Positions 7,140-62,016 of a stretch of DNA of 63,266 nucleotides are shown piece after piece. Numbering within the stretch: position 1 is the stretch's first letter; every line of letters starts with the position of its first letter. Made by a program: the position numbers and the translations under genes. The stretch spans positions 2,596-65,861 of the forward strand of contig CAZSYV010000004.1 in the NCBI GenBank assembly GCA_964610955.1. Reading direction: 5' to 3'. The stretch comes from an uncultured Klebsiella sp. Its GTDB lineage: Bacteria; Pseudomonadota; Gammaproteobacteria; Pseudomonadales; UBA5518. Below the pieces are notes generated by a model, which made no database searches, was not told where the DNA came from, and saw only the letters and a program-made list of their open reading frames with translations.

Positions 7140-7205
7140 GGTGGGGCTCTCATGCTTTTGTGCCGATTGTGCGCGTTCGTTGCGCGCTTGCCAATCGCCA
7201 CTGCA

Positions 7206-7214
7206 TGCCATAAT
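7206..7214 (+). promoter_or_regulatory. Putative extended -10 (TGnCATAAT) for rubredoxin
   Basis: TGCCATAAT at 7206-7214, TTGCCA at 7188-7193 (short 15-nt spacer), about 40 nt upstream of the ATG. Confidence 0.35.
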
Positions 7215-7255
7215 GCCTGCGCGTATCAACGGGTGTCGTGGGGGCGAAGCAGGGG

Positions 7256-7429
7256 ATGAGTGGTTACAGGAAATGGGAATGCGTGATCTGCGGTTTCATC
7301 TACGATGAGGCCCTGGGTCTGCCGGATCACGGCATCGCAGCGGGGACGCGCTGGGAAGACGTTCCCGAGGATTTCGAGTGTCCCGAATGTGGTATCGGCA
7401 AGTCCGACTTCGACCTGCTGCCTGAATGA
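7256..7429 (+). CDS. Rubredoxin
   Basis: 57 aa with CxxC ('WECVICGFIYD') and 'W..VPEDFECPECG' motifs. Confidence 0.95.
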   Translation: MSGYRKWECVICGFIYDEALGLPDHGIAAGTRWEDVPEDFECPECGIGKSDFDLLPE

Positions 7430-7448
7430 GTCGGCGCCCCCGTGCGAT

Positions 7449-42051: not shown

Positions 42052-42096
42052 GGCACTTTGGCGCAGTACCGGTGTTTCATCGGTACGGGAGGATGC

Positions 42097-43002
42097 ATGA
42101 CACGGCTCGCTTTCATTGGTCTGGGCGTGATGGGCTATTCAATGGCGGGTCACCTCGCGCGGGCGGGGCACACAATGTGCGTATTCAATCGTACCGGCAC
42201 GCGCGCCGAACGCTGGGTGAACGAATTCGGCGGCGTGCGCGCCGATACGCCTGCGCAGGCGGCCGAGGATGCCGAGGTGGTGTTCTGCTGCCTTGGCAAT
42301 GATCACAGCGTGCGCGAGGTGGCATATGGCGAGCACGGTGTGCTCTCGACGCTGCGCCATGGTGCGCTGCTGGTCGACCATACGACCGCATCGGCGCAGC
42401 TTGCCCGCGAGCTCGCGGCGCGGGTCGAGGCCTGTGGTGGGGGCTTTCTCGATGCGCCGGTATCGGGCGGTCAGTCCGGTGCCGAACAGGGGATCCTGAC
42501 CGTGATGGCTGGGGGCAGCGCAGCGGATTTTGCACGCGTCGAACCACTGCTCGAGAGCTACGCGCGCCGGGCCCGCCTGCTTGGCGGTGTCGGTGCGGGG
42601 CAGCTTGCCAAGATGGTCAACCAGATCTGTGTTGCGGGCGTGTTGGCTGGCCTGTCGGAAGGGCTGCACTTTGCACGTCGTGCCGGCCTCGATGCACAGG
42701 CGGTGGTCGAGGTGATCTGCAAGGGCGCCGCCCAGTCCTGGCAGATGGACAATCGCCACTGCACGATGCTGAGCGGGGAATACGAACACGGTTTTGCAGT
42801 CGACTGGATGCGCAAGGATCTTGCCATCGTGCTGGATGAGGCGCGTCGCAACGGGGCAAGCCTGCCGGCCACGGCGCTGGTCGATCAGCTGTACGCCGAA
42901 GTCCAGGCGATGGGCGGTGGACGCTGGGATACCTCGAGCCTGCTTGCGCGCCTTGAACGTGATGTGGAGGGGGGTGATGCCCGAAACCGATCTCACGCGT
43001 GA
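42097..43002 (+). CDS. NAD(P)-dependent beta-hydroxyacid dehydrogenase (HIBADH family)
   Basis: 'FIGLGVMG..MA..L', 'DAPVSGGQ', 'GQLAKMVNQ', 'WMRKDL'. Confidence 0.93.
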   Translation: MTRLAFIGLGVMGYSMAGHLARAGHTMCVFNRTGTRAERWVNEFGGVRADTPAQAAEDAEVVFCCLGNDHSVREVAYGEHGVLSTLRHGALLVDHTTASAQLARELAARVEACGGGFLDAPVSGGQSGAEQGILTVMAGGSAADFARVEPLLESYARRARLLGGVGAGQLAKMVNQICVAGVLAGLSEGLHFARRAGLDAQAVVEVICKGAAQSWQMDNRHCTMLSGEYEHGFAVDWMRKDLAIVLDEARRNGASLPATALVDQLYAEVQAMGGGRWDTSSLLARLERDVEGGDARNRSHA

Positions 43003-44269
43003 GCTGCTGGACTTCCTGGCAGCGTCGCCAACACCGTTTCATGCCGTGGACGCGCTGAGTGCCGTGCTTGCTGCACACGGGTTCACCGAACTTGCCGAGA
43101 CCGAGCGCTGGCACTGTGTTGCCGGTGGGCGCTACTTTCTGCGCCGCAACGGTTCCTCGTTGATTGCGTTCGTGAAGGGCCGCAAGCCGGCGACCGAGAC
43201 GGGAATCCGCCTGATCGGAGCGCATACCGACAGCCCCTGCCTGAAGCCCAAGCCGCAACCCGAGCTGCGTCACGCGGGTTATCTGCAGCTTGGCGTCGAG
43301 GTGTATGGCGGGGCCTTGCTGGGCACCTGGTTCGATCGCGAACTGTCGCTGGCTGGGCGCGTGAGCTACGCCACGGCACATGGTGTGCAGCACGCACTGA
43401 TCGATTTCCGTTCACCGCTGGCGGTGATCCCGAGCTTGGCGATCCATCTCGATCGGGAGGTGAACAAGGGCCGTGCGATCAACGCGCAGACTCACCTGCC
43501 GCCGATACTGGCACTTGCTGCGACGGACTCGCGTGATTACGCCACGCTGGTGCTCGATCGCTTGCTCGAAGAGCACCCGCAGTGCGGGGCGCAGCGGGTG
43601 CTCGGCTGCGATCTGTCGTTCTACGATACCCAGCCGGCACGACTTGTCGGACTGCACGATGAGTTCATCTGCGGTGCGCGCCTCGACAACCTGCTGAGCT
43701 GCTTTGCGGCGGTACACGCGCTGCTGGGCAGCAGTGGCGAGCATGGCGCAATCGTTGTGTGCAATGACCATGAGGAAGTGGGCAGCGTATCGATGGTGGG
43801 CGCCCAGGGTCCGATGTTGCCCGCGATGCTGGCACGACTGTACCCCGAGCGCGAGGACCGTGAACGTGCGCTTGCGCGCTCGTTGCTGGTGTCGACGGAC
43901 AATGCGCATGCGGTACACCCGAACTTTGCCGACAGGCACGACGCCAACCATGCACCGCTGCCCAACGCAGGGCCGGTGATCAAGGTGAACTCCTCGCAGC
44001 GCTATGCAACCAGCAGCGATACGGCGGCGATCTTCCGCTGGTTCTGCGAGCAGGAGGGAGTCCCAGTGCAGAGTTTCGTGGTCCGCAGCGACATGGCCTG
44101 CGGCAGCACGATCGGCCCGCTGACGGCAGCGAACATCGGCGTGCGCACGGTCGATGTCGGTGTGCCGACCCTGGCGATGCACTCGGCGCGCGAACTGGCC
44201 GGTGCCCATGACGTACAGGCACTGGTGCGCGTCCTGCGACGATTCTGTAACGCGTCCAGAGTGTGCTGA
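42977..44269 (+). CDS. M18-family aspartyl aminopeptidase
   Basis: 'SPTPFHAV', 'GAHTDSPCL', 'RLDNL.SC', 'DHEEVGS', 'DNAH..HPN', 'CGSTIGP', 'MHSARE'. Confidence 0.95.
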   Translation: MPETDLTRELLDFLAASPTPFHAVDALSAVLAAHGFTELAETERWHCVAGGRYFLRRNGSSLIAFVKGRKPATETGIRLIGAHTDSPCLKPKPQPELRHAGYLQLGVEVYGGALLGTWFDRELSLAGRVSYATAHGVQHALIDFRSPLAVIPSLAIHLDREVNKGRAINAQTHLPPILALAATDSRDYATLVLDRLLEEHPQCGAQRVLGCDLSFYDTQPARLVGLHDEFICGARLDNLLSCFAAVHALLGSSGEHGAIVVCNDHEEVGSVSMVGAQGPMLPAMLARLYPEREDRERALARSLLVSTDNAHAVHPNFADRHDANHAPLPNAGPVIKVNSSQRYATSSDTAAIFRWFCEQEGVPVQSFVVRSDMACGSTIGPLTAANIGVRTVDVGVPTLAMHSARELAGAHDVQALVRVLRRFCNASRVC

Positions 44270-44281
44270 TGTGCGGATGTC

Positions 44282-45073
44282 TCAGCTGCCCGTGTAGACC
44301 GCAGCTCGCTTGCCAAGGAACGCGCTTACGCCTTCGCGTCCGTCCGTGGTGACGGCGGCGGCGGCGATCTCGCTGCCTTCGAGATCCATCTGTGATTCGA
44401 GCGTGTTGTGGTAGGTCGAGACCAACAGCCGCTTGACCGAACCATAGGCGAGGGTCGGGCCATTGGCGATCTGGGCAGCCAGTGCCGAGGTCGCCGTGGA
44501 CAGCTCGGCATCGTCGACGACGCGGGTGACGATGCCCCACTCGAGGGCTTCCTCGGCTCCCAGCCTGCGGTTGGTCAGGATCAGCTCCTGGGCGCGGCGC
44601 AGGCCCACGATGCGTGGCAGGAAATAGGTGGCGCCACCGTCGGGCACCAGCCCGGCCGCCGTGTAGGCGAGGGTGAATTTCGCCGAGCGCGCCGCGAGGA
44701 CCAGATCGCCACCCAGCGCAAGGCTGAACCCTGCGCCTGCGGCTGCACCGTTGACCGCGACGATCAGCGGCGCACGCATGCGTGCCAGGTTCGAGATTGC
44801 TGCATGCAGCAGCAGCGTCAGCTCCTTCATGTGGCTCTGCAGCCGCGCCGAGTTGCTCACGAAACTGTTCAGGTCACCACCGGCACAGAACATGCGCCCA
44901 TTGGCGTCAAGCACGACGGCTCGCAGCGAGTCGTCGTGCCGGCACTCGAGCGAGACCTGCAGCAGATCGCGCGCCATCGCGAGATTGATGCCGTTTGCTG
45001 CCTCGGGGCGATTCAGCGTGATGCGCGCAATCGGCGCTTCCCGGACGAATTCGATGGTATCGAAAGTGCTCAT
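44282..45073 (-). CDS. Enoyl-CoA hydratase/isomerase (PaaG-like)
   Basis: 'ITLNRPE..N', 'FCAGGDL', 'VNG.AAGAG.SLA' (lacks the first Glu), 'GLVPDGG.TYFLPR'. Confidence 0.88.
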   Translation of the reverse strand: MSTFDTIEFVREAPIARITLNRPEAANGINLAMARDLLQVSLECRHDDSLRAVVLDANGRMFCAGGDLNSFVSNSARLQSHMKELTLLLHAAISNLARMRAPLIVAVNGAAAGAGFSLALGGDLVLAARSAKFTLAYTAAGLVPDGGATYFLPRIVGLRRAQELILTNRRLGAEEALEWGIVTRVVDDAELSTATSALAAQIANGPTLAYGSVKRLLVSTYHNTLESQMDLEGSEIAAAAVTTDGREGVSAFLGKRAAVYTGS

Positions 45074-45218
45074 CGATGGGTCTCCTGACGGGGGCTCGTG
45101 GTGCAGGCGCGAGTATGGGCAAGCGCCACCGGACGGGTCAATCGAGATGCCCCGTCACGGATTGGCGGTGACTTGCCGCGCCACGTATCATTGGCGGCCT
45201 CGCGCGGGATGAGCAGGC

Positions 45219-46229
45219 ATGAGACAGCACCGAATTCTGACGGGAATCACCACCACCGGTACGCCGCACCTTGGCAACTACGTCGGTGCGATACGCCCGG
45301 CGATCGAGGCGAGCAGGCAGCCCGATACGTTGTGCTTCTATTTTCTGGCCGACCTGCATTCGCTGATCAAGAACCAGGACCCGGGACTGCTGCGCCGCTC
45401 GACGGGTGAGATCGCGGCGACCTGGCTCGCCTGCGGGCTGGATGCCTCGCGCGTGGTGTTCTACCGCCAGTCGGACATCGCCGAGATTCCCGAGCTCTGC
45501 TGGTTGCTGAGCTGCATGACGGCAAAGGGTCTGATGAACCGCGCGCATGCCTACAAGGCTGCCGTACAGTCGAACCTGGATGCCGGACAGGATGCCGATT
45601 TCGGCATCACGATGGGGCTCTACGGCTATCCGGTGCTGATGGCGGCAGACATTCTGATGTTCGGCGCCGATCGTGTGCCGGTCGGTCGTGACCAGATTCA
45701 GCACGTCGAGATGGCGCGTGACATCGCGCAGCGTTTCAACCATCACTATGGAGAGCACCTGGTGCTACCCAGTGCGGTGGTCGACGACGATGTGGCCGTG
45801 CTCTCGGGGCTCGACGGGCGCAAGATGAGCAAGAGCTACGGCAATACGATTCCGCTGTTCCTGCCGGAGAAGCAGCTGCAGAAGCACATCAACCGCATCA
45901 AGACCAACCTGCAGGTGCCCGGAGAGCCCAAGAACCCGGATGATTCGACGGTCTTCGAGATATGGCAGGCGTTTGCGAGCGTGGAGCAACGCGAGGAGAT
46001 GCGCCGTGAGTTTGCTGCCGGCATTGCCTGGGGCGAGGCAAAGCAGCGACTGTTCGAACTGCTGAACGGGCAGCTGTGCGAACCGCGCGCACGCTACGAG
46101 GAGCTGATGGCGCAGCCGGCGCTGATCGAGAAACTGCTGCGTGAAGGTGCCGAACGTGCCCGCAGCTACAGCCGGCCGCTGCTGGAGCGTTTGCGCGAGG
46201 CTGTCGGTCTGCAGCGAGTCGACGTGTGA
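45219..46229 (+). CDS. trpS: Tryptophanyl-tRNA synthetase
   Basis: 'TGITTTGTPHLGNY', 'YPVLMAADIL', 'VPVGRDQ.QH.E', 'KMSKS'. Confidence 0.98.
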   Translation: MRQHRILTGITTTGTPHLGNYVGAIRPAIEASRQPDTLCFYFLADLHSLIKNQDPGLLRRSTGEIAATWLACGLDASRVVFYRQSDIAEIPELCWLLSCMTAKGLMNRAHAYKAAVQSNLDAGQDADFGITMGLYGYPVLMAADILMFGADRVPVGRDQIQHVEMARDIAQRFNHHYGEHLVLPSAVVDDDVAVLSGLDGRKMSKSYGNTIPLFLPEKQLQKHINRIKTNLQVPGEPKNPDDSTVFEIWQAFASVEQREEMRREFAAGIAWGEAKQRLFELLNGQLCEPRARYEELMAQPALIEKLLREGAERARSYSRPLLERLREAVGLQRVDV

Positions 46230-46317
46230 GGGGCCTGTAAGTGGAATCTGCCTTCGTCGCTATACTTGAGCAAGATGGCCATCCGCGTGCACGGTCGCAG
46301 CGACAGGAGGCATTTGC

Positions 46318-46755
46318 ATGACATGGGGAGTCATTCTGATTCTGCTGTTCGCCGGAATCTATGTCGGCCTGCGCCTGCATCACGGGTCCAGAAAGACACG
46401 ACGGACGACGAGGCGCGTGCGCGTGGAGGACGGCCGTCGCCACCCGGTGCGCAGCGCCCCCGCAGCTACGACAAAGGACGGTTTCCAGGGCAACCTGGTG
46501 ATGCCGCAGAGAGACAGTTGCGAGGCGGTCCAGCGCTTGCGTGGACGGACATTTCCTGCCGATCGCGTCATCGAGCTCCCGGTCAATGGCTGCGATCGCA
46601 CATCCTGCGGTTGCCACCTGCATCGCATCATGGGGCGGCGACTGTCTTTGCGTCGCGCCCAGTCGGATCGGCGAACCGATGTGCGCTTCGATCTCGATCG
46701 CCGCACGGGGCGCGATCGGCGCAAGGGTGCGGATACCTGGAGAAGCGATGCATGA
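46318..46755 (+). CDS. Hypothetical membrane-anchored Cys4 protein with an Arg-rich DRR-repeat tail
   Basis: AGGAGG RBS; N-terminal TM; C...CxxxxCxC; tail 'SDRR..RFDLDRRTGRDRR'. Confidence 0.7.
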   Translation: MTWGVILILLFAGIYVGLRLHHGSRKTRRTTRRVRVEDGRRHPVRSAPAATTKDGFQGNLVMPQRDSCEAVQRLRGRTFPADRVIELPVNGCDRTSCGCHLHRIMGRRLSLRRAQSDRRTDVRFDLDRRTGRDRRKGADTWRSDA

Positions 46756-46765
46756 GTCGGGGCGT

Positions 46766-48076
46766 ATGGCAAGAACGCTGAGATCGAAGCGCAGCTTTCC
46801 ACAGCGTGGACTGCGCAACATCATGCACCGCATCACGGTGGTGCCCGATCTGGATGAGGTGACGCAGATCGACCACGACAACGAGTGCGATCCGCGCGAG
46901 GCAGGCATTGAACCGCAGCGTACGCAGGCGATCTGGGATGCCGTGCGCACGCTTTATCGCAGTGGCTATTACCCGGCGATCATGTTCAGCCTGAGACGCG
47001 GCGGGCGCACGGTGTTCAGTCGTGCGATCGGACACTCATGCGGCAATGCGCCGGGTGCGTCCGAGGATCAACCCAAGCGTCTCGCGACGATCTCGACACC
47101 AAGCTGTATCTTCTCGGCCTCGAAGGCACTCACCGCAGTGCTCATCCACCGCATGGAGGAGCGGGGGGATCTCGTGCTGCAGAACCCCATCGCCTACTAC
47201 CTGCCCGAGTTTGCCCGCAAGGGCAAGGACCGCATCACGATTCAGCATCTCCTGACACATCGAGCAGGTATCCCGAGCATCGGTGGTGTCGAGGATCCGC
47301 GTGTCGTGCTCGACCACGAGCAGTGCCTGCAGTTGCTCTGCGAGGTGCAGCCGCGCTATCCGTGTGGGCAGCGGCAGGCGTATCACGCGATCACCGGTGG
47401 CGTGATTCTTGCGGAAGTCGTCCGTCGTGTTGCCGGGATGGATATCCGCGAGGCGTGGCGCAGCTGGTTCAAGGAGCCGATGGGTTTCGGTGTGCTGGAT
47501 TATGGGGCGAGTGAGGCGATACGTTCACGGCTTGCAGCGCAGTCACTCACGGGTATCCATGGCGTGCGCTGGGTCGATGAACTGGGGCGTCGACTGATCG
47601 GCGTGCGTTTCGAGGACGTGCTTGAACTGGCTGCCGATCCGGCTTTCTATCGTGCGGTGATTCCTTCGGCCAACATGGTCGCCACCGCCGGGGAAATGAC
47701 TGCGTTCTACCAGATGCTGCTCGATGGGGGGAGATGGAATGGCCGACAGATCCTGCAGCCGGAGACGATCATGCGTGCAACGATGGCCGCGGGGCCGTCG
47801 GCGCGTGACGCCACGATCGGTGTGCCGATGCGCTACAGCCCCGGCTTCATGCTCGGTGGCTCACCGTTCGGACTGTTTGGTGCAAACTCGTCGCGTGCGT
47901 TCGGACATGTCGGATTGTCGAACAACCTGACCTGGGCCGACCCCGAGCGTGGCATCTCGGTAGCCCTGCTGCTCAACGGAATACCCATCGTGGCAAACAA
48001 TCTGCTTGCATTGCTGCGCCTGCTCACCCGTATCACCGCAGGGTGTCCACGTGTCCGTGCACGGCGCAGAAAATGA
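46766..48076 (+). CDS. Serine hydrolase, beta-lactamase/esterase family (mycobacterial LipE-like)
   Basis: SxxK 'FSASKA', 'LLTHRAG', 'YHAITGG', 'FGHVG'; 'IWDAVR.LYRSGYYPAI..RAIGH..GNAP' resembles LipE as recalled. The start codon is uncertain (46748, 46766 or 46823). Confidence 0.88.
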   Translation: MARTLRSKRSFPQRGLRNIMHRITVVPDLDEVTQIDHDNECDPREAGIEPQRTQAIWDAVRTLYRSGYYPAIMFSLRRGGRTVFSRAIGHSCGNAPGASEDQPKRLATISTPSCIFSASKALTAVLIHRMEERGDLVLQNPIAYYLPEFARKGKDRITIQHLLTHRAGIPSIGGVEDPRVVLDHEQCLQLLCEVQPRYPCGQRQAYHAITGGVILAEVVRRVAGMDIREAWRSWFKEPMGFGVLDYGASEAIRSRLAAQSLTGIHGVRWVDELGRRLIGVRFEDVLELAADPAFYRAVIPSANMVATAGEMTAFYQMLLDGGRWNGRQILQPETIMRATMAAGPSARDATIGVPMRYSPGFMLGGSPFGLFGANSSRAFGHVGLSNNLTWADPERGISVALLLNGIPIVANNLLALLRLLTRITAGCPRVRARRRK

Positions 48077-48099: not shown

Positions 48100-48750
48100 T
48101 CAGCCCTGTGGCATGCCCAGCCACGACCGAATGCGTGAGTCGCGCCGCAGACCGATCACCAGTGATGCACCGGCATCGCGCAGCGCGATCACCGTTGCGG
48201 CACGGATCGCGTCCTCATCCGAGGTCAGTGCCGCAGTAGGCGTTTTGCCGTAGGCGGTGAAGTTCCAGTGGGCGATCGACTCCCCCGAGACGTCGAGGAT
48301 CTCCAGATCGTACTTGACCCAGATCTCGAAGATCTTCGCACGGGTATCGGCTGGCAGCGCAAACTGGAATTCGCTGACGCGCGGCACGATGATCGCCTGC
48401 ATGCCTGCAGGGCCACCGTGCGGCCCGGACAGCTCGTGCAGTTCGCGAAACGTGCTGGAGAACACGCTGCGAAATGCCTGCACCTGCGGATTTCCCAGGT
48501 TGATCGTCCATTCCTGCGCGGACGGAGCCGGGCGCTTTTCCTGGTGCGAGAACGTGCTGAATTCAGGAGGAAAATACACACCGATCGAAAGCTCCAGGGG
48601 ATCGACGAGTGCTGCCGGAAAGTCGTCGAGCGCGCGAACGTCGACGATGTGTGGACCACAGGCTGCAAGCAGCAGGGTGAGCAGCATGGGCACGATTGCC
48701 CTCAGTCGCAGCAGATCAGCCGGTGGTGAATGCCGAGGTTTCCAAGTCAC
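48100..48750 (-). CDS. Hypothetical lipoprotein (last gene of the TonB/vWA operon)
   Basis: Lipobox 'LLLAAC'; GTG start overlaps the upstream TGA, with GGAGG 7 nt upstream. Confidence 0.75.
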   Translation of the reverse strand: MTWKPRHSPPADLLRLRAIVPMLLTLLLAACGPHIVDVRALDDFPAALVDPLELSIGVYFPPEFSTFSHQEKRPAPSAQEWTINLGNPQVQAFRSVFSSTFRELHELSGPHGGPAGMQAIIVPRVSEFQFALPADTRAKIFEIWVKYDLEILDVSGESIAHWNFTAYGKTPTAALTSDEDAIRAATVIALRDAGASLVIGLRRDSRIRSWLGMPQG

Positions 48751-49742
48751 CTGTAATCCTCCAGTCCGACGAAGGTACCGTCGTTGCGCCATGTCAGCTC
48801 GCGCATCAGCGATGCGAAGCGCACCCCGGTGAAATCCTGATTCGGAGCAAGTGCAAATACCGTCGGGAAGCCGATGGCGTGGATGCGAACCAGCCGCTCG
48901 CCGCCGGTTTCGGCGTTGATGCGATCGACCTCGTTGATCACGCTGGCAATCGATTTCCCGGTGAATTCGTCACCGAGCACGTAGATGCTGATGCGTCGTC
49001 CCGGACGGTGGAAGGTACGGATCGCCGCCACGATGCCCTCGACCGGGCTGCTGTTGCTGTAAGGGTTCCAGTTGGCAAAGCGGCTGATGATCGCGTGCCG
49101 GCGCGCCGGGGTGTCGGGAATCCACTGCCCCCGGTAGCTGGAGAACATGTAGTCCCCCATGTCGTTCATCACCTGGATGCCCTTCAGCTTTGGATAGATG
49201 TCGAGGATGTGGATCATCTCGCGCTGCGTGCGCGGCCAGGCGTTGTAGAACATGCTTCCCGAAGTGTCGATCACGAAGATCACGTATTCGCTGTCGATCG
49301 GTATGCCGCCGATCGTGTCGTCACGGCGTTTTCCCTGCGCGCCGAGCAGGCGCTTCATCTCGGCGGTGAGGCGTTGCTTCGCGCTCTCGAGCTGTCCGGT
49401 GAGGCGGTCCTCGACCGTGTCGGTGCTGTGTGAGGCGGCGTGTTCACCACGGATCGTGGAGAGATCGCCCTGCAGGCGTGCCACCGCATCCAGCGTCTCG
49501 GAGAGCTGCTCGCGACGCGCATCGAGGTCGCGCTCGAACCGTATCGACTCACCGCGCAACTCCTGCAGTTCCTCCTGGAGTGCCGCGATGCGCCCGTGCA
49601 GGTCCTGTGTGCTGCGCTCCAGTGCCCGTGGCGCACCAATGCGCGTGATCATCATCAGCAGGATGATTGCTCCGAAGCCACAGCAGATCACGTCGAGAAA
49701 CGACAGGCTGAACGCCTCACTCGCGCGCCGGTTGAATCTCAT
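48747..49742 (-). CDS. Membrane-anchored vWA-domain protein 2
   Basis: TM 'FSLSFLDVICCGFGAIILLMMI', coiled coil, MIDAS 'IDTSGS', 'VLGDEF'. Confidence 0.85.
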   Translation of the reverse strand: MRFNRRASEAFSLSFLDVICCGFGAIILLMMITRIGAPRALERSTQDLHGRIAALQEELQELRGESIRFERDLDARREQLSETLDAVARLQGDLSTIRGEHAASHSTDTVEDRLTGQLESAKQRLTAEMKRLLGAQGKRRDDTIGGIPIDSEYVIFVIDTSGSMFYNAWPRTQREMIHILDIYPKLKGIQVMNDMGDYMFSSYRGQWIPDTPARRHAIISRFANWNPYSNSSPVEGIVAAIRTFHRPGRRISIYVLGDEFTGKSIASVINEVDRINAETGGERLVRIHAIGFPTVFALAPNQDFTGVRFASLMRELTWRNDGTFVGLEDYR

Positions 49743-50827
49743 GGCCAGTCCCGTGCGGGGGAGAGGAAGGCGCCACGGGTTCTGATCGCCAGTTGCCAGA
49801 ACGCCGATGCGGCCATTGGGTCGCCTTCCATCGGTGCCAGGATCACGTTGACCGGTACCCCGCGAGGCAGTGCCGCAAGCGCCTGATTGAAGTACTTCAT
49901 GCGATCGCGGCCACTGACCTTGGACGGTGGGCTGCCACTGCCCTGCGTCGGCAGACCGTCGGTGATCAGGTAGATATTGTCGGGTGCAGGCTTCATTGCC
50001 GCGACAGCCTCGAATGCGGCAAGGAGGCTGGTTCCGCCACTGGGGGTGATCATATCCAGAGCGGCAATCGCCCGCCCGAGCTGCTCGCGGTCGCTGACCG
50101 GGAGCCACTTGCCGGCAGTGTCCGGCAGCAGCGTTTCGGCACGGGTGGAGAATGACAGGATCTGATACTCGGCATCGGACGGAAACCGGGCGCTGATCCA
50201 GTTGACCGTGGCAAGCGCACGTTGCCATTTTGCTGCCCGTCGCCGCACCGGTTCAGGCATGTTGCGCAGCCGGATGATGTTGACCAGCGAGTGATCGAGC
50301 ATGCTTGCCGAGCGGTCGAGCAGCACGACGATGCGCCGTCCACCGAGCTTCAGCCCGGTGAGGTACTGACGGTCGCCATCGCCGATGAAGCGGCGCACAT
50401 CGCTGCCCGAATGACGTTCGGTCTCGGCGCGCAGCTGCTCGTTGCGCTGTTCGAGCTCGCGCAGGTCGGCCTTGAGCTGGTTCAGATGCTCGTTGCGCGC
50501 ACTGCTGTCGTGGCGGTTCCTGGCGAGTTCCTCGCGCCGTTCGCGGATCTCGCGCAGCAGCTCCCGTGATCGCCCACGTGCCTCGACGGTGGAGTCGTCG
50601 ATCATCGAGATGGTGTTGTGCAGCACAGCGAGCTTCTCGTGCTCCTCGCGTACCTCGCGGTCGTAGAACTCCACTTCGGCGAGCAGTTCGCGACTCGCAT
50701 CCTGCGCACGCAGCTCGCCGGAGTGATCGATGATCAGGAATACCAGAATCGTTGCACCGAAGCCACACGACATGATGTCGAGGAACGACAGGCTGAAGAT
50801 GGAAAATTCGCGGCGTTTACGGGCCAT
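49739..50827 (-). CDS. Membrane-anchored vWA-domain protein 1
   Basis: TM 'FSLSFLDIMSCGFGATILVFLI', coiled coil, MIDAS 'LDRSAS', 'GGTS', 'LITDGLP'. Confidence 0.85.
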   Translation of the reverse strand: MARKRREFSIFSLSFLDIMSCGFGATILVFLIIDHSGELRAQDASRELLAEVEFYDREVREEHEKLAVLHNTISMIDDSTVEARGRSRELLREIRERREELARNRHDSSARNEHLNQLKADLRELEQRNEQLRAETERHSGSDVRRFIGDGDRQYLTGLKLGGRRIVVLLDRSASMLDHSLVNIIRLRNMPEPVRRRAAKWQRALATVNWISARFPSDAEYQILSFSTRAETLLPDTAGKWLPVSDREQLGRAIAALDMITPSGGTSLLAAFEAVAAMKPAPDNIYLITDGLPTQGSGSPPSKVSGRDRMKYFNQALAALPRGVPVNVILAPMEGDPMAASAFWQLAIRTRGAFLSPARDWP

Positions 50828-52196
50828 CGTCGTCGACAGCCGATTCGGCGACCAGCCGCAGCGTATCGTCTCCGTCGTCAGGCTGCAGATGCTGGCCCGC
50901 CTGCACTGGCAGCGGTGCACTCACCGGGACGCCGTCGAGGCGCAGCATGGTGCCTGGTGCGGGAACCAGCAGCCAGCGCGAACCGTCCCAGCGCAGCGTG
51001 CCGGCGTAGGTCTGTGGCATGCGCTGAGACAGAGTCCAGCCGTCACGGTCGTGGCACAGGTAAAGACTGCTCGGCCGAAGTCGCAGGGCGCGCCCGCCGA
51101 TCACGAGGTGGCTGGGCAGGACTGGACTGGCCAGCAGAGGAGGGGGGTCGGGTGGCGCGTCGAGCTGGTCTGCGGGCTGGCCGTTGCCGTCGGGCGATGC
51201 CTCGCTGGCCGGGAGCCGGGTGACGAAGCGCAGAGTGGTGTCATTGCTGCCGATCAGTGCCTCGTGGTGCAGGCAGCCACGGATCGCTGCCTGTTCCTCG
51301 AGTGATGTGAATGCGGGCAACAGCTCTCCGATGCCCGGCAACGCCGCGAAGCGCGCGCTGGCGAGCAGCAGTACATTCTCGGCTCCGAGTTCGCGCTGCA
51401 CGGCCTGCACGATCTGGGTGTAGATCGGTCGGGCCGCATCGAGCACATCGGGTGCGCGCAGCTTCGCGTGGTAGACGCTTGCGTTGCTGTGGATTTCGAC
51501 AGCGGCATCTTCGCTGCCGTGCAGCATGTCCAGCCAGTCGGGAATGCGGTCGTAGAGCTGCTGCTCGCTTGCGGCGGCGTGCATCGGGTCGAAGCGGCTT
51601 TGTTGGATGAAGCGCCGTGCCAGCAGCTGTGCCCAGCGCTCGTACAGCTGCACCAGCCCGCAGCCCGGCAGGGTACGCACCGATTCGCGTGTGAGCATGT
51701 CGGCCTCGTGCCCGATGCGTGTCAGCACGCACTGGTGAAGCTGCAGGTCGAGGTGCAGCGTTGCGCCGCGGGTTGTCACCGTGCTGGCGGCGGCGAGCGC
51801 GCTGTCGACCAGCCCGGTGGCGCGAAATGCAGTGCGCTGTACGACTCCGAGCAGCACTGCGAGCTGTTCGCGGGTGAAACTTCCAGGGACGGCCAGGATG
51901 AGCTGTTGCGCTCCGTTCGCGGCAGTGGCGAGCTGCTGCAGTTGGGCCCAGGCCAGGTCGGCATGATGGCGTGCATGGTCGTGAGCCTCGTGCAGCGCTT
52001 CGGTGCCGAGGCGCAGCCAGAACTGGTTCAGCGTCTGGCGCGGTTCGCGGCGTGCACGTGCGCGTGCCGCCTCGCCGGTGATCACCCCATTGCGTGTGAT
52101 CGTCGCGTAGCCCGGACTGCGCAGTGGTGCTGCCTTGCCGTCGCCGAGCAGCAGCGCCGTGTCGTTGAGCTCGAGCACCCGGCTGTGTGTGTTCAT
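50817..52196 (-). CDS. Hypothetical cytoplasmic protein: degenerate Hsp70/actin-like NBD plus FHA-like domain
   Basis: DnaK-like spaced motifs ('SPGYA..GEAA...P..T..', 'ILAVPGSF..EQ..', 'VDSALAAA', 'LHLDL'); C-terminal 'LDGVPV...V.AG..L'. Confidence 0.6.
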   Translation of the reverse strand: MNTHSRVLELNDTALLLGDGKAAPLRSPGYATITRNGVITGEAARARARREPRQTLNQFWLRLGTEALHEAHDHARHHADLAWAQLQQLATAANGAQQLILAVPGSFTREQLAVLLGVVQRTAFRATGLVDSALAAASTVTTRGATLHLDLQLHQCVLTRIGHEADMLTRESVRTLPGCGLVQLYERWAQLLARRFIQQSRFDPMHAAASEQQLYDRIPDWLDMLHGSEDAAVEIHSNASVYHAKLRAPDVLDAARPIYTQIVQAVQRELGAENVLLLASARFAALPGIGELLPAFTSLEEQAAIRGCLHHEALIGSNDTTLRFVTRLPASEASPDGNGQPADQLDAPPDPPPLLASPVLPSHLVIGGRALRLRPSSLYLCHDRDGWTLSQRMPQTYAGTLRWDGSRWLLVPAPGTMLRLDGVPVSAPLPVQAGQHLQPDDGDDTLRLVAESAVDDDGP

Positions 52197-52999
52197 GGCT
52201 CGCGTGTGACCTTCAGGTGTCCGAGCAGGCGGCGGTCGGAGTAGGCCTGTGCGTCGAGCACGAGGCGTTCCTGCTGCAGTTGCAGCTGGTGCATCAGGAA
52301 CATGAGCAGGATGCTGATCACCAGTGCGACGAAGGTCGAGTTGAACGCGACACCAAGCGCTGCGGTAACGCCGGTGATGTCGCCTTCGACGGCGCGGTGC
52401 GCCTGCGTCAGCGCCATGCCGATGCCGCGCACGGTGCCGATGAAGCCAAACGAGGGGATGGCCCACGCGATGTAGCGCACCATCGAGAGCTCGGACTCGA
52501 GCCGCTCTCCCTCGGTTTCGCAGACCTCGTGGATCGCATTCGCGGTGTCCTGGATGCTGCGTGTGGCAGCAAAGCGCTGCAGCCCTGCAACCAGGGCGCG
52601 TGGCAGCAGTGCACGCGCCGTTTCAGGTGGCAGCGCCTGGATCGGGCGCAGGTACTCGCGCGCGTCTTCCGGCAGGATGCTGGTTCCCTCGGGAACCTGT
52701 ACCAGCGGCTGTTCGAGCAGGCGTTTTTCGACGCGCAGCGCCATTCCCTTGTAGCCCATGATGGCGAAGGACCAGAACATCAGCACAAAGCAGATCTCCT
52801 GTTCGTAGTCCTTCACGATCACCCACACGGAGGGTGCATGTGCGCTGGTGTCACCGAGCGCGAGTCGTGCCTGCTCGGCGGCCAGTACGGCCTCGGCCTC
52901 TGGCGCCACCACGGCGACGTAGAAGGCATGAACCACGATCAGCGCAATCAGCAGCGCGACCAGCTGAAAGAGAAACTCGGAGGCAAACAGGCGTTTCAT
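52193..52999 (-). CDS. MotA/TolQ/ExbB proton-channel family protein
   Basis: 'AIPSFGFIGTVRGI', 'LGVAFNSTFVAL', three to four TM segments. Confidence 0.92.
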   Translation of the reverse strand: MKRLFASEFLFQLVALLIALIVVHAFYVAVVAPEAEAVLAAEQARLALGDTSAHAPSVWVIVKDYEQEICFVLMFWSFAIMGYKGMALRVEKRLLEQPLVQVPEGTSILPEDAREYLRPIQALPPETARALLPRALVAGLQRFAATRSIQDTANAIHEVCETEGERLESELSMVRYIAWAIPSFGFIGTVRGIGMALTQAHRAVEGDITGVTAALGVAFNSTFVALVISILLMFLMHQLQLQQERLVLDAQAYSDRRLLGHLKVTREP

Positions 53000-53009
53000 G
53001 GTGTGGTGT

Positions 53010-53246
53010 TCAGATATCGGACGGGAATGATACGGAGAGATCCTCCGCAATGCTCTCGCTGGGAATGAAGCGCTCATCTTCCGGGTTGCGCGTTGTCTGG
53101 TGTGTTGCGGTGCCTGCCTTCTCGGTGTCGGTATCGACCACTGGCGGAGCCGTGGGCGGCGGTGTGCCTGTCTGCGGCATGTCCTGCGTGTGTGCTGCTA
53201 CGGTGAATGCCAGCAGTGCGAACATCGATGCAGCGGAGTGTTTCAT
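53010..53246 (-). CDS. Small secreted protein with an acidic C-terminal motif
   Basis: Signal peptide 'MKHSAASMFALLAFTVAA', Pro/Thr linker, 'DERFIPSESIAEDLSVSFPSDI'; ATGA overlap with the upstream gene. Confidence 0.7.
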   Translation of the reverse strand: MKHSAASMFALLAFTVAAHTQDMPQTGTPPPTAPPVVDTDTEKAGTATHQTTRNPEDERFIPSESIAEDLSVSFPSDI

Positions 53247-55306
53247 TCGGCGTACCTTGCAATGCGGAAACCGAGGTCGGGGCGAGGCCCCTTTCCGTAG
53301 TCGCGAAACGCCAGGCGCAGTGTCGTGACATCGCCATTGCGCCAGCTGGCGCCACGGATCGTGTGCAGCTCGCCCGACTGCGGGCCGAGTGGGTCACTGG
53401 AGCTCGCACCAGGCAGCGGCTCGTAGGCATCGTGCATCCATTCTGCCACGTTGCCGTCGAGATCGAAGATGCCGTGGCGGTTCGCCTTGAAGCTGCGTCG
53501 TGGTGCGGCGACGGGGAAACCGTCGTCGTAGTTCGCGAGGATCTCCCCGAGCAGCGTCGCACCGCTGCGATCGGCGAAGTTGCCGGCCCCGCGCGGTGGC
53601 GGCAGATCCTGTCCCCAGGCGAATCGCAGCGTCGAACCGTCGGCCATCACGCCAGCCGCCCACGCCCACTCGGCCTCGCTCGGCAGGCGATAGCCGCGGC
53701 TGTTCGGGTCGAAGCCAACGACGTGGCCACCCTGCACGCGGTAGAAGGGCTCGAGCTTGTCCCGGGCGCTCAGCCAGTTGCAGTAGAGGGCTGCATCCTC
53801 CCAGCCGAGGTTCACCGCAGGCAGCGTGTCGGCATCGAGCGCCTTGCCCTTGAACTCCCCCGATGCATGTGCGGGACGGAAGCGGCGGAACTCGCCATTC
53901 CCGACCTCGGCAACACCGATGAAGAAGGGTCGCCGCATGCGGACTTCGTGCAGCGTTTCGTTGGCTCGCCGGCCGAGCTCGCGGCGCGAGGAGCCCATTG
54001 TGAAGGTGCCTGGTCGCAGCAGCACCAGTTCCTGGCCCTCGGAGCTGGTGATGCGCTCCTCGCGCGGTGCCGCAGCGGCCTTTGGGGTCGTCAACGGGCG
54101 CAGTTTCACCTCGATGCGCTGCGCAAAGCCTGGGCGCGGAGTGAAGCGCAGCTCGTGCGTCTGGTAGCCGCTGCGCTGGACGCGCAGCGTATGCTCGACT
54201 CCGGGTAGCGTGAGGCTGCGCGTGCCGCGCGACACGGGGCGCGCATCGAGCAGCACATCGGCATCCGCAGGTTCGATCGCGAGCTGTACCTCACCATTCT
54301 GGGGTGCCAGCTTCAGCGTCAGTGTCTGGGTGCCGGAGTTCGCCGGCAGGGAGCGGACGACGCGTTCATGACCGGCCTTGAAGGCGATCAGCTCATGTAC
54401 CTGACTCGAGTCGATTGCGAGCTCCAGTGGTGCACGTCCCTGGAATACGCCATCGAGCGTGATGCTTGCCCCTTCGGGGTGGGTGGTGATGCGCAGCACG
54501 GCATCGGCGCGTTCGAGAGTCAGCGGCTCGAGCGTGCGTTCCTCGCCGGCGTTGGCGTCGATCATCAGGACGCCATCGCGGTGACCATCCAGGCGAAGGC
54601 GCAGGTGGTGGGTGCCAGCCAGCAGCTCGATGCGTGCCGGCGTGCTCGCCACTGCGGCGTCATCGACCAGGATGGCTGCACCCGGAGGCTGGGAATCGAT
54701 GTCGTAGCTACCCCAGCCCGGGGCGAGCGTGACGTCCAGCGTCTGCAGTTCGCCCCTTCCGATAATGGAGATCGTCTGTTCGTGTGTGAGAAATCGATCT
54801 GCCTCGATGCGCAGTCGGTGGTCTCCGGCGGCGAGCCCGATAGGCGCTCCATTGCTGTCGCCAACTGGATTGTCGTCGATCACGATGTGTGCGATGACCG
54901 GCGTGGTGTGCACGGCAATGCGCCCCGGCAGCGGCATCAGCTGGATGGCGAGCTGCTGGTCGCGACTGGCGTCGATCCGTACCTCGCGCTGGGTGGCAGC
55001 GTATCCCGGGGCTGTTGCGTGCACCGTGTAGTCACCCGGGTGCAGCAGGACCCGTCGGCCGAAGGGAACTGTCGGTCCGCCGGAAACCGTCACCTGGGTG
55101 TTGCTGGGGTCGAGCTGCAGCACGAGCACTCGTGCACCGAGCACGAACCAGGTGACTGTCGCCAGAGCGACCAGCACCGCGCCAAGTGCAAACCAGTGTC
55201 CGCGTGGTCCGGTCCGGTGCCCACGTCGCGCTGCGGGTGGCGTATAAGCGAGTGGTGCGATCGGTTCATCGATACCCGTATCGCTTGCCTGATCGTGCCG
55301 ACTCAC
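53243..55306 (-). CDS. Membrane-anchored multi-PEGA plus FGE-sulfatase (SUMF1)-fold protein
   Basis: N-terminal TM; several PEGA repeats ('TTPV.A.I.ID', 'SQPPGA.I.VD', 'THPEGA.I.LDG'); C-terminal 'FTMGS', 'P.V..WEDA..YC.WLS', 'RLPSEAEW', 'GNVAEW', 'RGASW', 'GFR'. Confidence 0.9.
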   Translation of the reverse strand: MSRHDQASDTGIDEPIAPLAYTPPAARRGHRTGPRGHWFALGAVLVALATVTWFVLGARVLVLQLDPSNTQVTVSGGPTVPFGRRVLLHPGDYTVHATAPGYAATQREVRIDASRDQQLAIQLMPLPGRIAVHTTPVIAHIVIDDNPVGDSNGAPIGLAAGDHRLRIEADRFLTHEQTISIIGRGELQTLDVTLAPGWGSYDIDSQPPGAAILVDDAAVASTPARIELLAGTHHLRLRLDGHRDGVLMIDANAGEERTLEPLTLERADAVLRITTHPEGASITLDGVFQGRAPLELAIDSSQVHELIAFKAGHERVVRSLPANSGTQTLTLKLAPQNGEVQLAIEPADADVLLDARPVSRGTRSLTLPGVEHTLRVQRSGYQTHELRFTPRPGFAQRIEVKLRPLTTPKAAAAPREERITSSEGQELVLLRPGTFTMGSSRRELGRRANETLHEVRMRRPFFIGVAEVGNGEFRRFRPAHASGEFKGKALDADTLPAVNLGWEDAALYCNWLSARDKLEPFYRVQGGHVVGFDPNSRGYRLPSEAEWAWAAGVMADGSTLRFAWGQDLPPPRGAGNFADRSGATLLGEILANYDDGFPVAAPRRSFKANRHGIFDLDGNVAEWMHDAYEPLPGASSSDPLGPQSGELHTIRGASWRNGDVTTLRLAFRDYGKGPRPDLGFRIARYAE

Positions 55307-56886
55307 ACCTTCTCCACGCACTGCACGAGCACTTCGGCGGGAGTCTGTCCGGCACGTACGCGGAACTCGATGCGCACGTCGCGAAAGCCGTTGCGACGAC
55401 CGACGGCGACGTAATTCCCCGGCAGCAGTTCCAGGGTTCTTTCCACCAGCGTGCCGTAGCTGCCGACGCGCAGCACGCTGACCTCGGTCTGCCCGTCGGA
55501 GCGCAGCTGCAGCGTGAGGGGTGTGCTGTAGGTCCTCAGCAGGCCGCGTACCGCTGCCAGGCGTGCCTTCAGCCGGGGCCCCGGGTCGCTGATCGCGGCG
55601 GCACGGGCGAGCAGTTCGCCGGCACGGCTGCGTGTGCCCGGCTCGAGCAGGCGATCGGGTGTGTGTTCGAGTTCTGTCAGCGCCTCGTCGAGTGCGATGC
55701 GCCGTGCTGCCTCCCGGCTGCCTTCGATCGCGGGGCCGAGTGTCGCGTCGATCGTCAGTGCCGCATCGAAATCACGCCTTGCCTTCACCCAGTCCTCGGC
55801 GTGTGCCGCCTGGCGTGCGCTGCCGAGCAGCTCGGCAATGCGCTGCTGGCTGAGCTGGAACTGCGCCTGCTGCAGTCCTTCGCGTGCCTCCGTGCCCGTC
55901 CCGTGCAGCGCCAGTGCCGCGCGGAATTCCTTCGCTGCGCCTGCATTGTCGGCCCGTGCGAGTGCCCCGAAGCCGGCAGAAAGGTGCTCCCTGTAGCGTT
56001 GCCCGGCGATGCGTGAGCGCAGATCGTCGAGCGCCTTGCGCGCTGGCGCGTACTCGCCATCGAGCGCCAGCGCCTGCTCGTAGTTCTGTTGTGCCAGCGC
56101 TGTGTCGCCCGCTGCATCGGCAACGGTGGCCCGTGTGCTCAGTTCGAGCACCTGATCCAGCGTGGCGGCGCGCTGCAGTCCGTGGCGTGCTGCGGCGTTT
56201 TCCTGATCGATCGCCAGTGCTTCGGCAAACAGTGCGGTTGCCTGGGCGGAATCACCTGCCGCAAGCGCAGCGGAGCCGCGGGTGAGCCGATCCTGCAGCC
56301 GTGTGCCGATGCCGTCGAGCGTTGCCTGCAGGATGGCAGTTGCCTCGCGGTAGCGTGTCTGCGCCGTTTCATGATCCCCCTCACGGTATGCTGCATCGCC
56401 CTCGGCCGCGAGCGAGGACGCCTGCTCGAGTTCCGGCTTCGCCCAGTCGCCTGCCCGACGTTCCTGCAGTTCGTGCTGGAGCATGAGCAAGGTGTCCAAT
56501 GCCTTCTTTGCTGCCTGGCGCTGCTGTTCGTCGACCATCCGCGCGTAGGGTGACTCCGTGGCGGGGGGCTGGGCTTCGATCGGGGGCGCTGGCGGTGTGG
56601 CGTCGGTCGTCTGTGCCGATCCTGCCGTTGCAGAAGTTTCCGGGGTCATCGTCTGTGTCGCTGCTGCGTGCTGGCGGGCGACATAGTCGGGGAGCAGGAA
56701 GAAGACGCCAGCGGCAAGGGCGAGCAGGGCGCCGATCAGCAGTGCCGGCAGCGGCAACGGTCTGCGTTGAACGGCATTCGGGATGGGGCTCGCTGCCTGC
56801 GAGATATCGACTTTCGCTGGCAGGATGCGGTCGAACTCCTTGCCGCCCATCAATGGTGTTCCCGTCCCCGATCGAGGTGGATGCAC
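55303..56886 (-). CDS. Membrane-anchored TPR/coiled-coil protein with a C-terminal PEGA-like domain
   Basis: TM 'LLIGALLALAAGVFFLLP', Pro/Ala linker, TPR-like helices ('A..LF.EAL.ID.EN..A..GL'), beta-rich tail 'LLPGNY.A.G.R.GFRD'. Start is either GTG 56886 or ATG 56850. Confidence 0.75.
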   Translation of the reverse strand: MHPPRSGTGTPLMGGKEFDRILPAKVDISQAASPIPNAVQRRPLPLPALLIGALLALAAGVFFLLPDYVARQHAAATQTMTPETSATAGSAQTTDATPPAPPIEAQPPATESPYARMVDEQQRQAAKKALDTLLMLQHELQERRAGDWAKPELEQASSLAAEGDAAYREGDHETAQTRYREATAILQATLDGIGTRLQDRLTRGSAALAAGDSAQATALFAEALAIDQENAAARHGLQRAATLDQVLELSTRATVADAAGDTALAQQNYEQALALDGEYAPARKALDDLRSRIAGQRYREHLSAGFGALARADNAGAAKEFRAALALHGTGTEAREGLQQAQFQLSQQRIAELLGSARQAAHAEDWVKARRDFDAALTIDATLGPAIEGSREAARRIALDEALTELEHTPDRLLEPGTRSRAGELLARAAAISDPGPRLKARLAAVRGLLRTYSTPLTLQLRSDGQTEVSVLRVGSYGTLVERTLELLPGNYVAVGRRNGFRDVRIEFRVRAGQTPAEVLVQCVEKV

Positions 56887-60479: not shown

Positions 60480-60509
60480 ACGTTTTGCCTGCCACCCTGT
60501 CATGGCCGC

Positions 60510-60618: not shown

Positions 60619-61032
60619 ATGCGGGTCGAAGAAGTCAACAAGGAACGGGTGCGGCGTTTTTTCGCCGCAATGAGTGCCGGTGACGTTGCTGCGCTGATCG
60701 ATGCCTATGACGATGAAGGTGCGGTATGGACCAGTGGACACACCCTCATTTCGGGCACCTTTCCGAAGGTGCGTATTCGCGAGGCGGCCGGGCGCATCTT
60801 CGAGGCCTTTCCTTCCGGGATCGAGTTCGTCATTCATGCGATGACGGCAGAGGGGGACCGGGTGGCGGTCGAGGCCGAATCGCGTGGACTGCACATCAGC
60901 GGCAAGCGGTACAACAATCTCTATCATTTCCTGTTCCGTTTTCGCGACGGGCGGGTGCTGAGCCTGCGTGAGTACATGGATACCGAGATGGTGACCGACG
61001 TACTATGCGGCGGACAGCGTCCGGCTCGCTGA
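60619..61032 (+). CDS. NTF2/SnoaL-like (ketosteroid-isomerase-like) protein
   Basis: 'N...VRRFF.A...GD', 'AEGDRVAVE', 'G..YNN.YHF.F..RDG.....REY.DT'. Confidence 0.9.
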   Translation: MRVEEVNKERVRRFFAAMSAGDVAALIDAYDDEGAVWTSGHTLISGTFPKVRIREAAGRIFEAFPSGIEFVIHAMTAEGDRVAVEAESRGLHISGKRYNNLYHFLFRFRDGRVLSLREYMDTEMVTDVLCGGQRPAR

Positions 61033-61082
61033 AGGGCGCGGATCGGTCGACACGAACCTTTGACAAACTGGAGAATCCTGCA

Positions 61083-61985: not shown

Positions 61986-62016
61986 GGGGGAGGGGTGCTG
62001 GCGTGTGCCGGCGCGC

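Follow-up and report, generated by a model that had tools for sequence, protein, structure and literature searches.

Which protein forms the axle of a MotA-like ion channel whose operon carries no gene for ExbD, TolR or MotB? The question is raised by a 63,266-nt stretch of DNA (contig CAZSYV010000004.1 of assembly GCA_964610955.1, positions 2,596 to 65,861; hereafter the window, with all positions counted from its first letter). In this window, a gene for a MotA/TolQ/ExbB-family protein lies in one minus-strand operon with the genes for two membrane-anchored von Willebrand factor A (vWA) proteins, vWA-A and vWA-B. To our knowledge, the B subunit of every 5:2 ion-driven motor characterised so far is of the ExbD/TolR/MotB, GldM or ZorB type. 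An earlier note on this DNA, made from the sequence alone, proposed that the vWA pair are the missing B subunits. We consider it likely that the N-terminal helices of vWA-A and vWA-B lie in the pore of the MotA-like pentamer, where they would replace the ExbD/TolR/MotB axle and where Asp17 would be the proton-carrying residue.

vWA-A (362 aa; 49739–50827, minus strand) was delimited by its open reading frame (ORF) and start, a Pfam match and an AlphaFold2 (AF2) model. It consists of a basic tail, a transmembrane (TM) helix, a helical stalk and a vWA domain, predicted to be periplasmic, with a metal ion-dependent adhesion site (MIDAS). vWA-B (331 aa; 48747–49742, minus strand), placed by its ORF and start, is a paralog of the same architecture, and the two genes are joined by an ATGA start/stop overlap. 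Public assemblies contain gene calls with exactly these two protein sequences, in support of the chosen starts. The N-terminus of vWA-A opens with MARKRR and contains FSLSFLDIMSCGFGA, and that of vWA-B opens with MRFNRR and contains FSLSFLDVICCGFGA. The TM helix occupies residues 8–33 of both proteins (FSIFSLSFLDIMSCGFGATILVFLII at 50729–50806 in vWA-A, with the Asp17 codon at 50777–50779; SEAFSLSFLDVICCGFGAIILLMMIT at 49644–49721 in vWA-B, with the Asp17 codon at 49692–49694, both on the minus strand) and follows the common pattern FSLSFLD[IV]...CGFGA. Ahead of the helix, the net charge of the tails is +2 to +3, and the region behind the helix is acidic, which speaks for the topology proposed here. 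The stalk is helical and spans approximately 110–125 residues. The spacing between Asp17 and the first MIDAS Asp is conserved, with a median of 153 residues in vWA-A and 142 residues in vWA-B. The description given in the earlier note, of two vWA proteins with a basic tail, nearly identical TM segments with a central Asp and MIDAS heads, agreed exactly with the sequence at 48747–50827, both in the strings that it quoted and in the MIDAS elements.

The vWA domain of vWA-A was recognised directly (Pfam VWA_2, E 8e-9, above the cut-off). In the AF2 model, which was built with 62 homologs, a single long helix (residues 19–103, then 109–141) is followed by a short linker and the vWA head at 160–358 (predicted local distance difference test score approximately 90). 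Long helix is thus predicted between the TM segment and the head; for the coiled coil named in the earlier note, the basis consists solely of weak coiled-coil family matches. A Foldseek search with the vWA-A head gave 82 PDB matches at E ≤ 1e-3, and the top 50 listed were almost all vWA domains. The best fold matches were BatA/BatB-type proteins of Bacteroides, the anthrax-toxin receptors CMG2 and TEM8, CLCA1 and integrin I domains. vWA-B gave no Pfam or PDB vWA match of its own, and its profile retrieved only coiled-coil noise from the PDB. Its N-terminal 190 aa matched vWA-A by BLASTP (E 3e-13), and hhalign aligned it to the vWA-A family over the full length with the MIDAS residues in register (probability 99.9%, E 6e-34). 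We assign the vWA fold to vWA-B because of this full-length paralogy. The predicted metal-coordinating set (DxSxS...T...D) is complete in vWA-A, where loop 1 reads DRSAS (D171, S173 and S175; 50303–50317, minus strand), followed by G-G-T266 (50030–50032) and T-D290-G (49958–49960). The set is also found in vWA-B, with Ser in place of Thr (DTSGS with D159, S161 and S163, then S231 and G-D258). Over 119 vWA-A representatives, D171 was kept in 110, S173 in 118, S175 in 111, T266 in 101 (with Ser in seven more) and D290 in all 119; the MIDAS residues of vWA-B were invariant in nine nonredundant orthologs.

vWA-A was searched against 1.84 billion cluster representatives, and the alignment comprised 119 near-full-length matches from clusters below 50% identity, 106 of which were ungapped at Asp17. 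The Asp was present in 105 of these 106 representatives, and the lone exception looks mis-started; it was also present in 42 of 42 vWA-B orthologs from related loci. The earlier note had named non-conservation of this residue as grounds for giving up the idea, and the residue is retained. The lineages that keep it include Gammaproteobacteria, Desulfobacterales, Holophagae/Acidobacteriota, Thermodesulfovibrionia and Chromatiaceae. Within the helix, F15, L16, D17, C21, G22, G24, A25 and L28 were invariant or nearly so, and the conservation of this Asp-bearing pattern is far beyond chance. The family is large, with more than 6700 clusters at 90% identity scored in a word-index search and approximately 1500 clusters at 50% identity found in an exhaustive one, and its hosts belong to several phyla of aquatic and sediment bacteria.

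When segments were compared by mean pairwise identity across the same eleven diverse genomes, the best-conserved part of each vWA protein was the TM helix (72% in vWA-A and 79% in vWA-B), followed by the head (62% and 72%, respectively) and the stalk (49% and 57%). Two plain TM anchors of the same operon, those of the TPR protein and of the PEGA-FGE protein, reached 29% and 47%. The MotA-like TM3 and TM4 reached 92% and 89%. The vWA helices and the two MotA-like pore helices are thus the most constrained elements of the system, which is what a helix-in-pore arrangement predicts. Because Asp17 is invariant and the TM segment is the best-conserved part, the vWA helices are better understood as functional pore helices than as anchors.

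The MotA-like protein, the presumed pentameric A subunit (268 aa; 52193–52999, minus strand), is a clear member of its family (PF01618 at residues 132–249, E 9.2e-15, 55 bits against a cut-off of 22.9). A PDB search with the single sequence gave no match, and a family profile was needed: the profile of eight nonredundant orthologs aligned to E. coli TolQ (8odt_A, E 0.014), with T189 (52433–52435, minus strand) equivalent to T145 and T222 (52334–52336, minus strand) equivalent to T178. Both pore threonines were invariant. The gene lies two genes upstream of vWA-A in the same overlapping operon, with one gene between them that encodes an Hsp70-like protein with a forkhead-associated (FHA)-like domain. 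No ExbD, TolR or MotB was found by tblastn (queries from E. coli MG1655, E ≤ 0.01) either in the 63-kb window or in 53 related loci, flanks of up to 10 kb included, and none of the 11 operon proteins matched the ExbD (PF02472), TolR or MotB families in Pfam or NCBIfam. The MotA-like protein is therefore without a canonical B subunit in its neighbourhood. The vWA pair are the only conserved single-pass proteins in the operon with a buried acidic residue. Together, conservation and synteny strongly suggest that the vWA pair take the part of the B subunits.

In the arrangement that we favour, vWA-A and vWA-B would be bitopic inner-membrane proteins with the basic N-terminal tail in the cytoplasm and the vWA head in the periplasm. 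Their helices would stand side by side in the central pore of the MotA-like pentamer, probably as an A/B heterodimer, which would give a 5:1:1 stoichiometry. The heterodimer requires that the two proteins co-occur, and vWA-A and vWA-B always form an adjacent pair. Asp17 of each would lie opposite the conserved pore threonines T189 and T222 and shuttle protons past them. Proton flow would turn the pentamer relative to the vWA dimer, and the helical stalk would pass this relative rotation on to the MIDAS heads, which may hold or pull an acidic ligand in the periplasm. As a straight helix of approximately 107 residues at 1.5 Å per residue, the stalk would place the heads approximately 15 nm above the inner membrane. 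If this is true, integrin-like MIDAS heads at the end of the axle would be a new means of linking the proton gradient to a periplasmic protein-ligand bond that depends on a metal. The output suggested in the earlier note, an integrin-like force-gated adhesion or extraction, is speculation.

Several comparisons of the helix with ExbD, TolR and MotB weigh against this arrangement. The earlier note had suggested an HMM comparison of the first residues, and over the first 35–40 residues nothing significant was found. An N-terminal vWA profile (40 positions, 58 sequences) matched no PDB chain at E ≤ 10, and the entries searched presumably include ExbD, TolR and MotB chains. E. coli ExbD scored −1.5 bits with filters off and ranked 303 of 1864 among ORF-translation matches, in an alignment that paired FIDVML with FLDxM. 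The hhalign values for ExbD plus TolR (8.5) and for MotB (6.9) were no better than those for the plain operon anchors (5.5 and 6.9). In addition, a TolR or ExbD encoded elsewhere in the genome may be the true partner of the MotA-like protein. The likeness consists of the basic tail, an Asp approximately one-third into the helix and the pentapeptide F-[LI]-D-[VI]-M, and the E. coli counterparts of Asp17, taken from the sequences, are TolR D23, ExbD D25 and MotB D32. As judged by conservation, the vWA proteins have the single N-terminal TM helix with a conserved Asp that marks a B subunit; in place of an ExbD-fold or OmpA-like peptidoglycan-binding domain, they have a long helix and a vWA domain. 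"Mimic" thus seems a fair word for the helix, and it may be a very divergent homolog. For the proposal that the vWA pair are the missing B subunits, the invariance of Asp17, the helix conservation, the MotA-like partner with both threonines and the lack of a nearby ExbD, TolR or MotB gene speak in favour; sequence homology to ExbD/TolR/MotB was not detected.

A closely similar proposal has been published. Section 8 and Fig. 4c-d of a computational study (Mol Biol Evol 2025; PMC12204202) predict that "TPH-vWA" pairs, with TPH for trans-pore helix, are the dimeric partner of TolQ-like pentamers. As described there, these proteins occur mostly in heterologous pairs near a TolQ-like gene and without a tolR/exbD gene, and they have a TolR/ExbD-like trans-pore helix with a conserved Asp. 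AlphaFold 3 complexes put the helices and the Asp pair inside the pentamer, at the Thr ring. The seed was from Idiomarina loihiensis, and that section reports a prediction without an experiment. All features described there are present in the window pair, which we liken to TPH-vWA on the basis of that description. The core proposal of the earlier note is thus an independent rediscovery of this prediction. Section 8 and the Fig. 4 legend describe only the motor and vWA genes, and the Hsp70/FHA, PEGA-FGE, TPR, lipoprotein and small-peptide genes are unmentioned in them; relative to these parts of the paper, the nine-gene context conserved across several phyla and the testable list of partners are new. 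A literature search found no further paper on the TPH-vWA motor idea, no experimental study of the vWA family and no paper describing the wider nine-gene combination. Cultured hosts exist (for example, Kineobactrum salinum and other Halieaceae such as Haliea and Parahaliea), so the published prediction is directly testable.

The nine-gene context was established by tblastn of all operon proteins against the 53 related loci. Across phyla, the genes followed one invariant order, namely low-complexity lipoprotein, ~394-aa lipoprotein, TM-TPR protein, TM-PEGA (x5)-FGE protein, small secreted protein, MotA-like protein, ~460-aa cytoplasmic protein, vWA-A and vWA-B. The order motA-like, Hsp70/FHA, vWA-A and vWA-B was invariant, and these four genes were linked by ATGA or 11-nt overlaps. 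In the window, seven junctions of the operon were ATGA or GTGA overlaps, and a terminator/promoter scan found no minus-strand terminator-like site inside the operon.

The motor may have its output in the cytoplasm instead. In this variant of the same arrangement, the vWA pair would be a stationary stator anchor, like the peptidoglycan-binding domain of MotB, with the MIDAS heads fixed to a periplasmic or outer-membrane scaffold while the MotA-like pentamer rotates against the Hsp70-like/FHA protein. The Hsp70-like/FHA gene lies between the motor and vWA genes, is translationally coupled to both and is conserved in every locus, the cytoplasmic domain of the MotA-like protein (approximately 90 residues) has many invariant residues, and MotA itself drives FliG, a cytoplasmic output. 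We nevertheless consider this variant unlikely: the operon lacks genes for a rotor-like assembly in the cytoplasm, six of its nine conserved products belong to the periplasm or envelope, which points to work in the envelope, and the FHA part of the cytoplasmic protein is degenerate in the window lineage. There is only a slight chance that the vWA proteins are TonB/TolA-like, with helices that bind the outside of the pentamer and are pulled by it. Like TonB and TolA, they combine one TM helix with a long linker and a globular head, and a vWA transducer family of this type has been proposed in PMC12204202. However, that family is described there with a SHLS/His motif and adjacent tolR-like genes, whereas the window-type helix has no conserved His; moreover, with no tolR/exbD gene in the loci, the pore would be empty.

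It is also quite improbable that the vWA helices are ordinary anchors in a periplasmic vWA/TPR complex of the Bat type, with the MotA-like protein acting alone or with an ExbD/TolR paralog encoded elsewhere. The resemblance lies in two paralogous membrane-anchored vWA proteins that accompany TPR proteins in both systems, one TPR protein here having a weak BatC-type match, and in the BatA/BatB-type proteins of Bacteroides that are the closest solved structures to the vWA-A head. The lack of sequence homology between the vWA helix and ExbD/TolR/MotB fits ordinary anchors as well and counts against pore helices. However, the plain anchors of the operon are 29–47% identical, whereas the vWA helices are 72–79% identical and contain an invariant buried Asp and a C-G-x-G-A motif. 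The MotA-like gene lies just upstream, beyond the Hsp70/FHA gene, in all loci, with no ExbD gene nearby, and the energy source here would be a proton channel. We know of no Bat protein with a conserved Asp-bearing helix and a long stalk. The hallmarks of the Bat operon, the function of which is also unknown, are a MoxR AAA+ ATPase and a DUF58 protein (PMC3557215). Neither was found among the 11 operon proteins, and membership in the Bat operons was rejected. Finally, the N-terminus might be a type IV pilin-like class III signal and the vWA proteins modular vWA pilins like PilB of Streptococcus sanguinis. A short basic leader does precede a hydrophobic helix with an early acidic residue, Gly stands five residues before the Asp in 17 of 106 vWA-A representatives, and a vWA-bearing minor pilin was among the fold matches of the vWA-A head. 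However, the position of Gly(−1) was taken by Ser or Asn in most vWA-A proteins and in all vWA-B proteins, the acidic residue is Asp and not Glu, a long helix follows rather than a pilin head, and the operon has no pilus assembly genes. We rejected such a signal on the Gly(−1) position, and the pilin explanation as a whole is very improbable.

Compared with ExbBD, TolQR and MotAB, the MotA-like protein truly belongs to the family of the A subunits and retains both pore threonines. The presumed vWA B subunits resemble their counterparts in having one N-terminal TM helix, a basic tail in the cytoplasm and, at comparable depth, an invariant Asp. The differences are the long helix and MIDAS vWA head, the presence of two paralogous B-type genes, and the gene for a cytoplasmic protein between the A and B genes. 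Two B-type genes in place of one are, we assume, also the situation with AglQ/AglS of Myxococcus. The system resembles GldLM/PorLM with GldK/PorK and GldN by analogy only, as a 5:2 motor with a dimeric subunit that reaches far into the periplasm and with an FGE-sulfatase-fold protein; no GldL, GldM or GldN homologs were found in the operon, and the GldK match was below threshold (73 vs. 350 bits). Unlike the outer-membrane lipoprotein GldK/PorK, the FGE protein of this operon has an N-terminal TM helix and five PEGA domains as its anchor. Zorya (ZorAB) also uses a MotA-like pentamer for a nonflagellar purpose. A Zorya-like defence role was rejected: PADLOC gave only a weak ZorA match (E 1e-3) and no ZorB, ZorC or ZorD, and the other eight proteins had no match to a defence model. 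The conserved partners here are largely envelope proteins.

The gene between motA-like and vWA-A encodes a cytoplasmic protein of 459 aa (50817–52196, minus strand), whose start overlaps the motA-like stop by ATGA and whose end overlaps the vWA-A start by 11 nt. It was present in all syntenic loci. The single sequence had no Pfam match, TM segment or signal peptide. The family profile matched Hsp70 nucleotide-binding domains (SSB1, E 1.9e-5, positions 72–310) and FHA domains (E 8e-7, positions 379–462). Since the phosphate loops of Hsp70, which are rich in glycine, appear to be replaced, the protein may not be an ATPase. It probably docks on the cytoplasmic face of the MotA-like pentamer, where it would act as a regulator or anchor. 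In the window lineage, the FHA-like C-terminus is degenerate (50817–51100, minus strand), with a 6-residue deletion at the place of G-V-S-R-K-H-C in other phyla and loss of the S-x-x-G-T-x-V-N signature; the copies in Desulfobacterales and Holophagae look like canonical FHA domains. The cytoplasmic loop of the MotA-like protein (residues 85–174) contains, at residues 144–147 (52558–52569, minus strand), an invariant Thr146 with Ile or Val at +3 (T-R-[SN]-[IV]-Q-D). This motif resembles a phospho-Thr FHA-binding motif, and a docking site for the neighbouring FHA protein at this position is pure speculation.

Upstream of the motor gene, a small secreted protein of 78 aa (53010–53246, minus strand) has a signal-peptide-like hydrophobic N-terminus, a variable low-complexity middle and an acidic C-terminus (ERFIPSESIAEDLSVSFPSDI-COOH). 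An equivalent small ORF was found between the FGE and motA-like genes in nearly every locus across phyla (L001-L053), and the C-terminal consensus across phyla was F-x-P-S-E-x-I-x-x-[DE]-x-x-V-[DS]-F-P-x-D-I-stop (53010–53075 in the window). This invariant C-terminus could be the ligand of the MIDAS or of the TPR protein. The next gene, syntenic in all loci, encodes a protein of 692 aa with an N-terminal TM segment, five PEGA domains and a C-terminal FGE-sulfatase fold (53243–55321, minus strand; the start may be a GTG at 55306). Pfam PEGA matched in five stretches (E 4e-36) and FGE-sulfatase once (E 1.6e-34); the best NCBIfam match was GldK/PorK (E 3e-20), with the 73 bits given above against the cut-off of 350. 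A catalytic formylglycine-generating enzyme (FGE) requires a pair of active-site cysteines. In the protein of the window, C514 is the sole Cys; 33 orthologs showed no conserved pair and only one Cys was invariant, and a catalytic FGE was rejected. We take the protein to be a structural module and not an enzyme.

The TM-TPR protein (515 aa; 55303–56850, minus strand) is syntenic and has a TM segment at residues 31–59, TPR repeats and a conserved beta-rich C-terminal segment. Its Pfam TPR_2 match was just above the cut-off, its NCBIfam match to a BatC-type TPR was weak, and the C-terminal 70 residues were conserved. It is preceded by a conserved, syntenic lipoprotein of 394 aa (56888–58072, minus strand), in which a lipobox Cys, an alpha/beta domain and long helices are accompanied by a hydrophobic segment rich in Gly. 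Both the lengths of the homologs and an ATGA overlap agree with a start at 58072. The lipoprotein had more than 2300 homologs, all unnamed, and no Pfam or PDB sequence match. Its AF2 model (predicted template-modelling score 0.74) gave weak fold matches to LptE and the TolB N-domain (E approximately 2e-3) and none at E ≤ 1e-3. The Gly-rich segment (residues 291–333; 57071–57199, minus strand; AGIAAIIGGIAA...GSVGIIGGAVMV) was modelled with very low confidence, and presumably resembles the glycine-zipper membrane hairpins found in outer-membrane lipoproteins such as SlyB. Directly upstream, a lipoprotein with a long low-complexity linker (58069–59238, minus strand) ends in the motif DDxVARQxREAAxxExDPELxxxLWxEY (58069–58170). 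This C-terminal part was conserved in 17 of 18 loci that extend far enough, directly upstream of the gene for the 394-aa lipoprotein; the motif recurs in several phyla, and neither the protein nor the motif had a Pfam match.

With these partners, there are concrete candidates for the roles of ligand, scaffold and cytoplasmic regulator in the vWA motor. As ligands of the MIDAS, the co-conserved candidates in the operon are the GldK-like FGE-fold domain on its five-PEGA spacer, the lipoproteins and the acidic C-terminus of the small secreted protein. The five PEGA domains could hold the FGE-fold domain at a height similar to that estimated for the vWA heads. Tentatively, and with considerable doubt, we suggest that the nine co-conserved genes might encode a single trans-envelope machine of a kind not described before, built from unrelated parts and functionally analogous to GldLM-GldKN or Agl-Glt. 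In such a machine, the vWA heterodimer would be an axle driven by protons and would put a mechanical load on the bond between MIDAS and ligand close to the outer membrane. This would serve surface adhesion or motility, or the extraction or remodelling of outer-membrane components.

The first and last genes of the window operon are lineage-specific. The first encodes a protein of 422 aa with TPR repeats (Pfam TPR_12, E 9e-9) and a weak TonB_C-like C-terminal domain (E 9e-4, below the cut-off) at 59235–60503 on the minus strand, and overlaps the following gene by ATGA. The only homolog found was in Kineobactrum salinum; the other phyla gave none. The TonB_C-like domain hints at a link to an outer-membrane partner. 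The last gene encodes a putative lipoprotein (48100–48750, minus strand; start at GTG 48750 or ATG 48687) and has a GTGA overlap with the vWA-B stop. It has no Pfam family, and its homologs were found only in the gammaproteobacterial relatives L001, L002 and L057. In the Kineobactrum salinum locus (CP048711.1, L057), the homologs of the TPR/TonB_C-like protein (597–1671) and of the PEGA-FGE protein (5556–7653) are each split over three reading frames, and these are either frameshifted pseudogenes or assembly errors. In nine Desulfobacterales loci, vWA-B is followed by a protein of approximately 166 aa that has a TM segment and an N-terminus resembling a zinc ribbon (CPKC...CPGC), for example at 7209–7688 in L007. 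This protein is absent from the window and may be a lineage-specific accessory gene. The flanks of the operon (42058–48076 and 61005–63198) contain ordinary metabolism and housekeeping genes, namely those for a 3-hydroxyisobutyrate-dehydrogenase-like protein, an M18 aminopeptidase, an enoyl-CoA hydratase, a class I W/Y-type tRNA synthetase, a beta-lactamase-family hydrolase, a luciferase-like monooxygenase and an acyl-CoA dehydrogenase, and the operon is a self-contained insert between housekeeping genes.

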